Positions 27,070 through 38,554 of a stretch of DNA of 64,000 bases are shown here, one piece after another. The position numbers and the translations under genes are program-made. The notes below the pieces were generated by a model that was not told the origin of the DNA, did no database searches, and saw only the letters and a program-made list of their open reading frames with translations. The stretch comes from Escherichia coli (lineage in GTDB: Bacteria; Pseudomonadota; Gammaproteobacteria; Enterobacterales; Enterobacteriaceae). The stretch lies in assembly GCF_024502345.1 (NCBI RefSeq), contig NZ_JALDNN010000001.1. One strand, given 5' to 3'. The stretch's first letter is position 1; each line of letters opens with the position of its first letter.

Positions 27070-27084
27070 TGGTGTCCCCTGCAG
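27070..27084. repeat. 15 nt direct repeat of the argW 3' end (TGGTGTCCCCTGCAG); candidate prophage attR core
   Basis: Exact match to the first 15 nt of the reverse-complemented argW 3' end at 38480-38494. Confidence 0.5.
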
Positions 27085-27157
27085 ACATCTACTTGAAGCG
27101 GCAGGGGATTGATTGGAATGGTATTTTTTAGATGTGAGAAATATTTTACCCGCTATT

Positions 27158-27358
27158 TTACCCATTGGCGCGGCTTAAGAGCTTATTTTTGAATTCACAA
27201 TGGTCACGATATAACCATCTTGCTCGCCCGTGGATAACTTTGGCTTTTGGAAGGTCTCCGGACTTAATCCGATCATAGATGAAGGTTTTACCGAAGCCAG
27301 TATCGGCCATGATGAATTTCAAATCAACCAGTGAATCAGGCTGTAGTTCGTGTTGCAT
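27158..27358 (-). CDS. torI: TorI-like excisionase / recombination directionality factor (AlpA family)
   Basis: 66 aa ORF (MQHELQPDSLVDLKFIMADTGFGKTF…), recalled as matching K-12 KplE1 TorI; sits at the prophage edge opposite intS. Confidence 0.8.
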   Translation of the reverse strand: MQHELQPDSLVDLKFIMADTGFGKTFIYDRIKSGDLPKAKVIHGRARWLYRDHCEFKNKLLSRANG

Positions 27359-27377
27359 GAGTGCTATCTCCGAATAG

Positions 27378-27393
27378 GGAATCGAACCTGCAA
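27378..27393. repeat. 16 nt fragment identical to the argW T-arm (GGAATCGAACCTGCAA); not a tRNA gene
   Basis: Matches argW positions 38494-38509 (reverse-complemented strand) but flanking sequence cannot form an acceptor or T stem. Confidence 0.4.
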
Positions 27394-27493
27394 ATCAGGC
27401 AATAAAAAACCGCATTGATGCGGCGATGGTAGGTCTGGATATCATTGAGCAATGAACAGGCATCATCGAGTGTGAGGCGGTGTTATTTTATGG

Positions 27494-27838
27494 TTAGTCC
27501 TTGCGTAGCTCTCTGATTCTTCTGTAAGTCTCTGGTGCTTTGTTTCCGTGTATCTTCATTTCCGACTTCAACAGAGCAACTAGGGAATCCCATTCGTTGA
27601 GGATTCCTTTGAATGCCGGAACGCGCTTTGCAACCTTGTCGAATGAATCTCTGATTTCTGGAATCTGCTCAACAAGCGCAACGCATCGTTGGAAATCGTC
27701 TGCGTCATGGGGAGCGCCGAAGTGATGACCATAGATATTCTTTTTCAGGCCACATGCGATTGAGGCAAGAGTTGCGCTACTGATGCCGACATCGCCAGTT
27801 GATTGCCATTTCAAAACCTTCATAGCCAAATCTGACAT
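27494..27838 (-). CDS. Hypothetical prophage protein
   Basis: 114 aa ORF in the pL-driven leftward gene string; no family recognised. Confidence 0.45.
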   Translation of the reverse strand: MSDLAMKVLKWQSTGDVGISSATLASIACGLKKNIYGHHFGAPHDADDFQRCVALVEQIPEIRDSFDKVAKRVPAFKGILNEWDSLVALLKSEMKIHGNKAPETYRRIRELRKD

Positions 27839-27938
27839 TTCTTGTCTCCATAAAACAAAACTCGCCGTAGCGAGTTCAGATAAAAGAAATCCCCGCGAGT
27901 GCGAGGATTGTTATTCACCTTTTACGGCAAGTTGCAGG

Positions 27939-34643: not shown

Positions 34644-34996
34644 TTTCGCGACTGACCGTACTCCACGGCTTCTTTCAGGATCTCAACTTCCATCGTTTTC
34701 TTGCCCAGAAGGCGCTGAAGCTCCCGGACCTGCTTCAGAGCAGCAGTAAGCTCAGAAGCAGGAACGACTTCCTCTCCAGCCGCAACGGCGGTGAGGCTGC
34801 CTTCCTGATATTGCTTCTTCCACTTAAACAGCAGGCTGGGCTGGATACCATGCAGGCGGGCGACATGGGAGACATTCATACCCGGCTCCATCGTCTGCTG
34901 GATAATGGCGATCTTCTCCTGAGGAGTTTTACGTTTACGGACTTCTTGCCCTAACAGGATCCCGGTCATCTCAAAATTGGCGTTAGTGTTAGACAT
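34601..34996 (-). CDS. IS3-family transposase OrfA (InsC-like, HTH)
   Basis: 131 aa ORF overlapping orfB by 43 nt in a different frame, as expected for a programmed -1 frameshift. Confidence 0.75.
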
Positions 34997-35060
34997 ATAT
35001 TCAAGCCTATCTCTTATCTGGAGATACAGCTACTGTCCGGTGTTTCAGGGGGCTACATCA

Positions 35061-35075
35061 TCCTGAAAACCAGAT
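35061..35075. repeat. 15 bp direct repeat (TCCTGAAAACCAGAT), right copy flanking the IS2-like element
   Basis: Identical to 33710-33724. Confidence 0.6.
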
Positions 35076-37160
35076 TCAGGTTTATGTGGAGAATGAGGAT
35101 GGTTCTCACGTTCCTGTTTCGCAGCCAATCATCATTAACGCCGCTGGTTATCCTGTATATAACGGACAGATTGCCAAGTTCGTAACTGTGCAAGGCCACT
35201 CTATGGCTGTTTATGATGCATATGGTGCGCAGCAGTTTTATTTCCCTAATGTGCTGAAATACGACCCTGATCAGTTAAGGAAGGAAATTACATCCACAGG
35301 GAAAGGAAAAGGTGCGGATATGATCCCCCTTCAGCAGGGTGGAACAGTTCAAAGTGCTATATATTATGTTACGCCATCATCGGCAGGAATAACTGGTGAT
35401 GGGACAGATGAAGGAGAAAAATTAATCTATTTGCTAAATAGATATGATGGGTATGTTATCGACCTGTCTGGAATGACAATTAAAACAAGCGAGATGATTA
35501 GTGTTGTTTTCAACAAAAAAACAACAATAAGAAATGGAACTATTATCTATACTGGAGCAGTAAGTCCATTTGTTTTAAAAATAACGTGCTCATCCGTTCT
35601 TTCCATAGAGGATATTGCCATTGACGGCAAGAACAATGCTGCAAAGCTACTCTATGCGCTTTCATCCGATAACAACGCAAAAATATCTATTTCAGGCTAT
35701 TCTGGAAGAAACGCTAGGGAAGCAATTGACACAGGATTATCAACTGCTGCATATATTACGGCAGGCTCATTGTTTAGATGGAAAGAGATTAGGCTGTCAG
35801 ATTCCTCAGCTTATGATATTTCAAGCTCAGGTGGTTCTAATGTTGGTCGCGGGTTTATGGTTCAAAACTTTGAATATTGCTATGTTAGGAATATTTCAGT
35901 ATTCCGAGTTGGACCATATCAGGATGCGGATGGGATATATGCATCATCCCCTAACTATTTATCAGCAGTATTTGATATTAGTGATTCGTATTTTGAAGAC
36001 TGCCAGAAGAGATCAGTCAAATCACAGATAATGAACTCTCGGGTGAGCAATATTGTAGAGCGGCGCACACAGGCCTTTGCTGTTGCTGCTGGGCAGTCAG
36101 CAGTAGACTTGCAGGCAGGAGGTTCTCTAGACGGACTTAGTTGCTTCTATGCTGACGGAGCAGCCCCACAGTCAATCGTTTCAGGTGGTCTTGTCAGTGG
36201 AGCACCGACATTTCGAGGTATTTCTTTGCGAAATATTGACGTCAACTGCGAAGATCCGTCAGATATTATCTCTCGTCTGGTATCATTTTATAATAACTCG
36301 CCGAATACATATGATGGTTACATTGCTGAAAATATAAAATGTAATGCCATAATAGAGAATGTTGGATTTCTGTATAGCAATACAGGAAACACAAATTTTA
36401 ATGTATATCTCTTCAAAGAGGTTATCTTCAGAAACATTCAGTCGTCAGGAATGGCAGGAACGGTGCCAACTGCTGTAATTCAAATAAGCAGAGGTTCCTC
36501 TGCGTATGTGAAGGCTATAGTACGGGTGCAAAACCTCAATCTTGGCGATGGAAATATCGCACCATTGTATTATCTTGACCCATTGCCAGGGGTTACAACT
36601 TTTCTTGATGTTTTATTTCGTCAAGTAAGTAATTGCAGAGGGTTTGATACGCTAACTAACGTAAATTCCGATACATCTCAACGCATCTATGCAGTAACTG
36701 CAGACGTAGCTGAAAATGAATCTACAACACTTTTAATACCAATAAAGACAACAAATGGAAAAACGGCAGTAAAAATATCTGTAATGTATAACTCAAACAG
36801 GGATGAGCATGCAGCAAAGCTATTCACAGAAGGATACTGGTTCTTCGGGTTATCATTGCCATATTATATAGAATCAGTCGCTGGAGTAAAAACACAAACA
36901 AACGTTGGATCTATCGTGGTCACAGTTGCTGAAAACAATTTAGTTGTAAAAAAAATCGCTGGAACCACCGCTGCAAGCGGGCGGATGACAGTGATTATTG
37001 AGCATATATCATGCGTGAATATGTAGGTTAATCTGATAAATTGGGAATGGATTGGTTGCAGAATGGCGCCCTCTGTGAGACATCTGCTGCATTAGGAGTG
37101 ATAACATACATCATCAACGATGCGATGTGAGTTTGATTATTGCACGGTTTATAGGTGGCG

Positions 37161-38318
37161 CTATGCCACCCTCTCATCAATCCAGTCCGCCCACCACTGC
37201 ATCATTTCTCTGCGCTTATCGAGATACTGAGCATGGTTGTAAATCCCACGCACAGATCCGCCGTTGGCATGTGCCAGTTGCACTTCAATAGCGTCAGCAG
37301 GCCATTCGTGCTCGTTCATAATCGTGCTGAATTCATGTCTGAATCCGTGACCGCTATCCAGACCCTCATAGCCGATTTGTTTGATCACAAGTAGCACCGC
37401 GTTCTCGCAGATTGGCTTCTTCTTATCGTTGCGCCCGGCAAAAACAAATTCTGATACTGGTTTGGTGATGGAGCTTAACGTAGTGAGAAGTTCAACCACC
37501 TGGTCTGACATCGGGACCACATGAATTTTGCGTCCTTTCATCACACTGGCGTCGATGGTGATAATCCTGTTTTCAAAATCGACGTTCTTCCATAGCATAG
37601 AACGAAGCTCTTTCGTTCTTAGGGCTGTGTAGCGTAAAACTTTGGTCGCAATGAGCGATACAATACTTCCTGAAAATGTTGCCAGTGCTTTGTTGAATGC
37701 CGGGATCTGGTCTGCAGGAAGAAACGGGAAGTTCTTCTTGCGGTATCCCTTCATGGCGTCAGCAAGGTCAGGTGCCGGGTTATATTTAGCCCTACCAGTA
37801 ACAATAGCGTAACGGAAAACCTCGCCGCATCTTCTGCGGGCTTTGTTGGCTCTCTCCATTGCGCCGCGATCTTCAAATCTGCGGATTACTTCCAGCAGTT
37901 GCATCGGCTCAATATCCTGAATTTCAAGGCCGCCGATGATGGGTAAAATGTCGTCATCAAACATTTTGGCAAGTTCAGTTGCATAGCCTACTGACCAGAC
38001 TTGCTTCTTGTGCTCGTACCACTCCTTGTAAATCGCACTAAATGAATTGTTGTTAGACGAAGCCTTTTTCGCCTTTACCGGATCGATGCCAACCGAGATG
38101 TCTTTCCTCGCAGTCCATGCCTTATCCCTTGCTTCCTGCAAAGTCATAAGCGGATATTTTCCGACGGTCAGGATTTTCTCCTTACCGTCAATCTTGTAGC
38201 GAAGCTGCCATACCTTTTTCCCGGATACAGGAACATAAAGGTACAGGCCATTACCATCGAGAAGGCGGTATGGTTTTTCTTTCGGCTTTGCTGCTTCAAT
38301 CTGCTTAACGGTGAGCAT
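37161..38318 (-). CDS. intS: Prophage tyrosine integrase IntS (KplE1/CPS-53 type)
   Basis: ORF 37161-38354; start placed at the internal Met (MLTVKQIEAAKP…) for about 385 aa; lies beside argW. Confidence 0.85.
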   Translation of the reverse strand: MLTVKQIEAAKPKEKPYRLLDGNGLYLYVPVSGKKVWQLRYKIDGKEKILTVGKYPLMTLQEARDKAWTARKDISVGIDPVKAKKASSNNNSFSAIYKEWYEHKKQVWSVGYATELAKMFDDDILPIIGGLEIQDIEPMQLLEVIRRFEDRGAMERANKARRRCGEVFRYAIVTGRAKYNPAPDLADAMKGYRKKNFPFLPADQIPAFNKALATFSGSIVSLIATKVLRYTALRTKELRSMLWKNVDFENRIITIDASVMKGRKIHVVPMSDQVVELLTTLSSITKPVSEFVFAGRNDKKKPICENAVLLVIKQIGYEGLDSGHGFRHEFSTIMNEHEWPADAIEVQLAHANGGSVRGIYNHAQYLDKRREMMQWWADWIDERVA

Positions 38319-38479
38319 GGGTAAAAATCCGGTGGGTAAAATTATTTTATCCACTTTTTACCCGTCATGGAGTGCGGCTGTCAACGATCTGAAGCGAACC
38401 ATGACGAACTGTTAGTTTCCGGGAGGCTTGATATTCTGGGGATTTTACGGACTGGTACGGATGGGAGCGAACTGATAAA

Positions 38480-38554
38480 TGGTGTCCCCTGCAGGAATCG
38501 AACCTGCAATTAGCCCTTAGGAGGGGCTCGTTATATCCATTTAACTAAGAGGAC
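38480..38554 (-). tRNA. argW: tRNA-Arg (CCU anticodon), argW
   Basis: 75 nt; forward sequence GTCCTCTTAGTTAAATGG…CCTAAGGG…GCAGGTTCGATTCCTGCAGGGGACACCA with encoded CCA. Confidence 0.9.

Follow-up and report, generated by a model that had tools for sequence, protein, structure and literature searches.

The window analysed here is a 64,000-nucleotide (nt) stretch of an Escherichia coli genome (assembly GCF_024502345.1, contig NZ_JALDNN010000001.1), and all coordinates are given in its numbering. Between 27070 and 38554 it carries an element of 11.4 kb (~10 kb without the insertion sequence, IS, lodged in it) that lies against the tRNA gene argW, a well-known insertion hotspot, and is bounded by the integrase gene intS and the excisionase gene torI, with a lambda-type repressor switch, remains of phage structural genes and an interrupted tailspike gene between them. 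Content was assigned by PHROG, NCBIfam and PADLOC scans, and a local BLAST map was made against K-12, lambda, P22, Sf6, HK620, IME10, Sf101, mEp234 and E. coli ZY22049. The anatomy agrees with the original prediction, which described a degraded mosaic prophage at argW with intS and torI at its borders and with argW-derived repeats, over precisely this interval; we consider it very probable (about 0.9) that the element is defective and descends from a temperate P22-like podovirus (Sf6/HK620/IME10 group), which inserted at the argW 3' end and decayed in place.

Ends and recombination module

The argW gene, encoding tRNA-Arg(CCT) on the minus strand (38480-38554; ARAGORN and Rfam), is the sole tRNA gene that these two programs found in the window, and the Rfam scan of the interval returned no RNA family besides it. 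The attL core consists of the final 15 nt of argW (38480-38494), and this 15-mer, TGGTGTCCCCTGCAG, occurs exactly twice in the window (0 expected by chance), the other copy being at 27070-27084. We assign this exact and unique repeat (no strand assigned) as the attR core, equivalent to pawZ of K-12, where the same 15 nt are annotated as an argW pseudogene at the end of CPS-53, right after torI, and where CPS-53 begins within argW. The published KplE1 core is 16 nt long, CTGCAGGGGACACCAT (PMC2951348); of the duplicated core CTGCAGGGGACACCA(T) expected for insertion into the argW 3' end, 15 of the 16 nt are repeated exactly in the window, at 27070-84 and 38480-94. A second fragment of argW, the 16-mer GGAATCGAACCTGCAA, also occurs exactly twice (0 expected by chance), at 38494-38509 within the tRNA gene and at 27378-27393, just upstream of torI.

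Inward from the attR core, a P arm (27085-27157, minus strand) runs to the torI stop codon and is nearly identical to that of K-12, HK620 and ZY22049, and beside it IntS arm-type repeats, TATTTTACCC, lie in the 3' end of torI (27158-27180), where HK620 has annotated attP repeats; core, P arm and torI together share 97% identity with HK620, Sf6 and IME10. At the other end, the attL P' arm (38319-38479, minus strand) holds the intS promoter PintS, IntS arm-type repeats and five TorI sites with GTTCG, GTCCG and GATCG cores, the three cores found in the five attL sites to which TorI binds (PMC2951348). Compared with K-12, this arm has 8 mismatches in 201 nt, with the five pentamer cores kept at K-12-equivalent positions and the arm repeats and the TTGACA -35 element conserved. 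The torI gene itself (27158-27358, minus strand) encodes a recombination directionality factor (RDF) of 66 amino acids (aa; PHROG 66 excisionase) that is 100% identical to K-12 TorI, and intS (37161-38318, minus strand; PHROG 1) encodes an integrase of 385 aa, counted from the ATG at 38318, with 4 residue differences from K-12 IntS. The mechanical open reading frame (ORF) of intS reaches a GTG at 38354, which places its start, on the same strand as argW, 125 nt (GTG ORF start) to 161 nt (K-12-equivalent ATG 38318) downstream of the tRNA gene. The window therefore holds every part of a KplE1/CPS-53-type module, namely a duplicated core, intS beside the tRNA with attL over its promoter, torI beside attR, and five TorI sites, and these parts can be matched directly to functional K-12 and phage versions. 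Published work has shown that argW (pro)phages, HK620, Sf6 and CUS-3 among them, have attL, attR, intS and torI as a conserved module, and that the defective KplE1 can still be excised in vivo (PMC2951348, PMC3509656).

KplE1/CPS-53 of K-12 occupies the same argW site with the same core, the same TorI and the same attL/attR layout, and both elements are ~10 kb and defective; its cargo, however, is wholly different, comprising gtr-type genes (yfdGHI), tail-fibre fragments and yfdK-T, with no repressor. Only the two ends align with CPS-53 (27070-27481 at 93.7% and 37166-39500 at 97.1%), so that the earlier description of this locus as the K-12 CPS-53/KplE1 location with other cargo holds. Both flanks are ordinary chromosome, with cscK/cscB outside the attR core, an arrangement shared with other csc-positive E. 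coli, and yfdC, mlaA, yfdF and fadL beyond argW; the element thus does not extend past 27070-38554, and its ends do not mark the border of anything larger. Neither outcome that would have told against the original prediction was seen: no larger prophage contains the element, and related genomes do have the argW matches. The outer flank of attR (24396-26629) is the csc sucrose locus, with cscK and an intact cscB, where K-12 has dsdC. Beyond argW, a stretch of low GC content (0.33-0.36) at 40500-42000 coincides with a 406-aa ORF on the minus strand in the yfdF position, and the chromosomal flank at 39000-62000 reaches a best identity of 98.7% among 5,426 complete E. coli genomes, indicating that the host lineage is poorly represented there.

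Phage genes, deletion joints and immunity region

Three internal deletions, with sizes of ~21.5, 7 and 2.3 kb as inferred from the Sf6 and Sf101 maps, appear to have removed a total of ~31 kb from a phage of ~40 kb, or about three quarters of it. At joint 1 (28270/28271), where similarity to mEp234 and to the lambda PL/nutL region ends (at 28271), nutL is joined to the DUF551 region, and N is missing together with the remainder of the PL operon. Joint 2 (31148/31149) creates an in-frame O'::'gp20 fusion, an ORF of 381 aa (31048-32193, plus strand) that comprises O codons 1-34 followed by gp20 from about codon 97, with a PHROG O-like match over residues 1-35 and a gp20 match over residues 34-375; the corresponding deletion (21.5 kb) spans O codon 35 through nin, Q, lysis, packaging and head genes to gene 20 codon 96. 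This chimera sits downstream of PR, cro and cII. Joint 3, within 32615-32629, links the coding sequence of gene 16 to the region downstream of gene 16, leaving a truncated gene-16-type ejection protein (32194-32649, plus strand) of which the first 145 codons, with a lytic transglycosylase domain, remain (PHROG 21143, positions 1-145 of 576). Up to 32629, the gp20 part and the opening of gene 16 share 99.6% identity with IME10. Joint 3 lies in an imperfect microhomology of ~15 nt (CCTCTGCA[A/T]AGG..TAC), and the O'::'gp20 joint has at most 1 nt of homology.

Apart from the 34-codon O stub, no replication, lysis, packaging or head gene is present in 27070-38554, as the original prediction had it for replication, lysis and head genes, and what remains is short of a complete functional P22-like prophage. 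Because those genes are absent, the defective element is predicted to be unable to replicate, lyse its host, package DNA or form particles.

The P22-like character of the remnant is carried by the ejection protein fragments and the tailspike, in the order gene 20 - gene 16 - (sieA position) - mnt - tailspike - int. The sieA position of P22 is taken by a gene for a predicted lipoprotein of 161 aa (32642-33127, minus strand; lipobox LLVGC; PHROG 6067), which had no match in PDB sequences, PADLOC or NCBIfam, and next to it lies a gene for a Mnt/Arc-family repressor (33198-33497, minus strand; PHROG 795 and Arc-like families, with Pfam Repressor_Mnt and Arc in identical contigs). The tailspike gene is in two parts: a 5' part (33585-33724, plus strand) that encodes ~codons 1-47 of the head-binding domain (PHROG tailspike families, profile positions 1-48), and a 3' part (35061-37026, plus strand) with the remainder of that domain and the receptor-binding domain. 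In copies of the element that are free of the IS the tailspike is intact at 696 aa. Its likeness to P22 or Sf6 is confined to the head-binding domain, beyond which no sequence relative was found among solved structures, and the receptor-binding part (35270-37110) is a rare allele, present in 1 of the 5,426 complete genomes (HCP6S3_I2, also at argW, 99.9%). The description of the cargo as P22-like, with tailspike and Mnt, stands for the tailspike head-binding domain and the Mnt-like gene; the backbone, however, is that of Sf6, HK620 and IME10, and P22 DNA aligns over 73 + 216 nt only.

The IS that splits the tailspike at ~codon 47 (33725-35060, minus strand; 1,336 bp) is an IS2-like member of the IS3 family, with orfA at 34601-34996, orfB at 33762-34643, imperfect terminal inverted repeats ending TGATC...GATCA, and a target duplication of 15-17 bp (33709-33725 and 35060-35076). 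It had been called an insertion of the IS2 family, of which the IS3-family, IS2-like part is supported by NCBIfam (NF033516 at 199 bits vs. a cutoff of 160), but the element is not IS2 itself, with TnpB at 416 bits vs. a cutoff of 597 and TnpA at 201 vs. 229. With IS2, which is 1,331 bp long, it shares the two overlapping frames (IS2-like OrfA/OrfB), imperfect TG...CA inverted repeats and a similar length; in contrast, it falls below the IS2-specific cutoffs and makes target duplications of 15-16 bp, whereas IS3-family elements normally duplicate 3-5 bp and IS2 duplicates 5 bp. Copies 100% identical to it are present elsewhere in E. coli, and the long duplication recurs at three independent sites: 15 bp in the window, 16 bp where it sits in an integrase gene of both E. 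coli S43 and strain 81, and again 15 bp where E. coli H1 has it in ydeE.

On the early-left side, torI is preceded by an "ea" early-left gene (27494-27838, minus strand; 114 aa; PHROG 1229) with 93% nucleotide identity to mEp234 and by the DUF551 gene (27939-28232, minus strand; 97 aa; PHROG 60, Pfam DUF551 in identical contigs), which is directly downstream of joint 1. The region 28271-28460 (minus strand) holds PL, OL1-3 and a nutL boxB of the P22/HK97 type, with PL reading TTGACA-17-GATACT at 28407-28379, OL1-3 each differing from lambda by 0-1 mismatch, and nutL by 5 mismatches in 17 nt. Further along are the lambda-type repressor gene cI (29419-30132, minus strand; 237 aa, 4 residue differences from lambda cI and 96.3% nucleotide identity to lambda), the operators OR3-OR2-OR1 with PR (30143-30208, no strand assigned; PR at 30180-30208), which show 0, 0 and 1 mismatch to lambda, respectively, and the lambda-type cro (30233-30433, plus strand; 66 aa, 2 residue differences from lambda Cro). 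PL and PR are the sole two sigma-70 consensus matches in 27000-31200, and their hexamers match those of lambda. The next two genes are of other origin: a cII-like activator of 98 aa (30571-30867, plus strand; PHROG 191) that belongs to the HK97/mEp234 type, not the lambda type, with 10 differences from the cII of mEp234 and scant identity to that of lambda, and a 53-aa gene (30900-31061, plus strand; PHROG 1331) that is a homologue of Sf6 gene 42, with 99.5% identity to Sf6 27827-28030. The elements of lambda immunity specificity, i.e. cI, Cro and all six operators, are therefore present, and the predicted lambda immunity module stands as far as cI, cro, OR and OL/PL are concerned; the full lambda immunity region is not, since a BstA-like pseudogene takes the place of rexAB, N has been lost, nutL is of the P22/HK97 type and cII of the HK97/mEp234 type.

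The pseudogene in place of rexAB (28628-29387, minus strand) is a KilA-N/BstA-like abortive-infection gene in three fragments that match PHROG 6287 (BstA). Alignment to an intact 253-aa homologue in E. coli ML35 located two lesions, a nonsense codon at 29048 and the loss of 2 nt at 28756, so that the gene no longer encodes an intact protein with both a KilA-N and a BstA C-terminal domain. The ML35 homologue matches the PADLOC BstA model at 2.5e-20, over its C-terminal part only. BstA proteins of P22-like prophages likewise combine a KilA-N N-terminal domain with a BstA-type C-terminal part and are encoded directly downstream of the prophage repressor, a position that is reportedly typical of bstA (Owen et al. 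2021); the differences are that the intact homologue has 253 aa against profiles of ~300 positions and that the gene in the window is inactivated. E. coli 1008S19 also carries the identical doubly broken allele (100% over 821 nt), in an argW prophage that appears to be full-length. Since the broken allele is shared with that prophage, the lesions would have originated in a circulating phage lineage, or been passed on through recombination with one, and not during the decay of this remnant.

Relatives, order of events and rival readings

Close relatives are the phages Sf6, HK620 and IME10 (Lederbergvirus) and the argW prophages of E. coli ZY22049, HCP6S3_I2 and 1008S19, with which the int-attP-RDF module is 95-97% identical. 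This phage group also shares with the element the order gene16 - small gene - mnt - tailspike - int and the tailspike head-binding domain. The element differs from Sf6 in immunity, which is of the lambda type in the window and of the 434 type in Sf6, and from Sf6, HK620 and IME10 in lacking the ~31 kb that carry replication, nin, Q, lysis, packaging and head genes, N and the PL operon. ZY22049 has a fuller prophage between the same torI and intS, with head-completion and ejection genes kept, and fuller prophages lie between the same two genes in HCP6S3_I2 and 1008S19. Defective P22-like argW prophages that share the IntS/TorI module are already well documented, and the present one is a member of the KplE1/CPS-53 family in another state of decay.

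None of the 5,426 complete E. coli genomes carries the element, as judged by coverage of at least 80% of 26500-39500. The exact O'::'gp20 fusion protein was, however, found on at least 10 contigs of ENA and Logan metagenome or run assemblies, and the six of these that were aligned are 99.97-100% identical to the window, the longest placing the element between cscB and argW/yfdC. All five aligned contigs that span the tailspike lack the IS and have a single copy of the IS-flanking 17-mer, i.e. an empty site; the junction between IS and tailspike was not found among 100,044 species-representative genomes, and there was no record of the stub protein. The relative order of the IS can thus be read directly from these copies: as near-identical copies carry the deletions and the BstA lesions without the IS, the former predate it, and the IS insertion is the most recent and a lineage-specific event.

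We surmise the following course of events: a phage would have integrated into the argW 3' end by IntS site-specific recombination, duplicating the 15/16-nt core, and would then have decayed in place by three internal deletions, removing N and the PL operon, O codon 35 to gene 20 codon 96, and gene 16 past codon 145; the BstA-like gene would have gained its stop codon and frameshift; and the IS3-family element would have inserted into the tailspike as the latest event. Two units that look intact would have been left, a KplE1-type recombination module (attL, intS, torI and attR) and a switch of lambda specificity (cI, cro, OL and OR). The junctions on which this scheme turns are observed, and nothing in the data contradicts the structural reading. 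Two qualifications apply. The attR core agrees with the published 16-nt KplE1 core at only 15 of 16 positions, yet the same is seen in other csc-flanked E. coli, e.g. ZY22049; and all known copies of the element are nearly identical, so that their conservation is silent on selection.

The latter point bears on a different account of the remnant, by which the host would have kept it as a domesticated cassette, with the lambda-type repressor and possibly the lipoprotein and the Mnt-like repressor protecting against superinfecting phages. That cI, Cro and the six operators as well as the lipoprotein and Mnt-like genes are intact, and that the same remnant occurs in at least 10 assemblies at the same locus, would fit such a role; but identity of 99.97-100% among the copies speaks of a recent lineage in which purifying selection cannot be measured, the only recognisable defence gene (BstA-like) is broken, the element is absent from the complete genomes, and the lipoprotein resembles nothing in the three databases named above. 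We therefore regard domestication as possible but unlikely. Much less probable is a helper-dependent satellite resembling a phage-inducible chromosomal island (PICI) and mobilised by a P22-like helper phage. An integrase, an RDF and a repressor switch in ~10 kb without the IS have the look of one, but two of the three joints cut phage genes (O'::'gp20 and gene 16), at the third, N and the remainder of the PL operon are missing, identity of the parts to ordinary phages is 96-99.6%, and there is no replication initiator, origin (34 O codons remain), primase, small terminase/pac function or capsid-redirecting gene.

The two argW fragments could be read as marks of two integrations, a small torI element lying in tandem with a second prophage, since together they cover 30 consecutive nt of argW and torI lies between the two. 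The second fragment, which the original prediction had listed among the repeats of the locus, is real and exact; but the 16-mer occupies the corresponding position in K-12, in HK620, Sf6 and IME10, which are free phages, and in all the other modules that were retrieved, with diverged versions in Erwinia and Salmonella phages, and there is no second copy of the crossover core. Its presence in phage genomes that are not integrated means that it is phage-borne, neither an integration scar of this genome nor a boundary repeat of this insertion, and the tandem reading is refuted, with hardly any likelihood left to it. That the whole structure is an assembly chimera is the sort of explanation that an IS, mosaicism and absence from complete genomes invite, but, apart from those of the IS, all junctions recur at 99.97-100% identity in independent ENA and Logan assemblies, and the IS is flanked by a clean target duplication at a site that the IS-free copies have uninterrupted; we give this explanation next to no weight. 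A phage remnant that decayed in place remains our preferred reading.

Predicted immunity, excision and a motif upstream of torI

Given its operators and its 4 differences in 237 residues, cI should hold PL and PR shut and so confer immunity to phages of lambda immunity. As regards excision, TorI is identical to that of the functional K-12 module, IntS differs at 4 residues and the attL arm sites are kept; for these reasons we infer that the element could still be excised by IntS and TorI as a non-replicating circle, as is K-12 KplE1. Excision would probably be rare, because N has been lost and the stretch between PL and torI contains three terminator-like hairpins, one of them (27409-27424, minus strand) lying between torI and the gene upstream of it. 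For the same two reasons we have downgraded expression of torI from PL in an SOS-inducible manner, and excision coupled to induction is doubtful. KplE1 is not SOS-inducible (PMC2951348). A cII-dependent promoter upstream of the RDF gene is an annotation-level prediction only, given in the HK620 and Sf6 records.

The phage-borne 16-mer upstream of torI (27378-27393, minus strand; sense strand TTGCAGGTTCGATTCC) is identical to the T-arm of argW and lies 19 nt before the torI ATG; in HK620 it falls inside the predicted pI promoter. Diverged RDF modules, with TorI identities of 36-88%, have unrelated flanks, yet they retain a core, A(G/A)GTTCGATTCC(C), just upstream of the ribosome-binding site of the RDF gene, and a 12-nt core of the element is kept upstream of diverged RDF genes that include those of Erwinia and Salmonella phages. 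Among 53 distinct RDF upstream sequences from IMG/VR, 32 had the motif with at most 2 mismatches (12 of them exactly) and 21 did not; in 28 of the 32 it stood 6 nt before a Shine-Dalgarno (SD)-like sequence. Erwinia phage Midgardsormr38 has two motif copies in tandem. The motif includes the pentamer GTTCG and agrees with TorI site I4 of attL (TGGTTCGCTTC) at 9 of 11 positions. Five phage records and two IMG/VR scans for RDF modules at other tRNAs gave readable cores that were all of the argW type, TGCAGGGGAC. A hairpin sequestering the SD sequence, or a T-arm-like RNA fold, was rejected as an explanation of the motif, since stem complementarity (judged by eye) occurs in few lineages and is absent in HK620 and in the window. 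Based on its position, its GTTCG pentamer and its agreement with site I4, we tentatively propose that the motif core AGGTTCGATTCC, derived from or mimicking the T-arm of argW, may be a conserved cis-element and a candidate TorI/IntS operator that controls the torI promoter, a possibility that we hold with less than even confidence.

With an IS-free precursor and fuller relatives available, the order of decay events in this element can be read directly. Unlike KplE1, the element has a complete lambda-type switch beside an intact recombination module, and it may offer a minimal system for the coupling of RDF expression to induction without N or the PL operon. An IS2-like element that reproducibly gives target duplications of 15-16 bp is a by-product of possible general interest. 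The torI promoter was described as uncharacterised in 2010, and the conserved T-arm-like motif bears on it; if the proposed role is true, the motif would supply the control point that has been missing so far for excision in the KplE1/HK620/Sf6 family.

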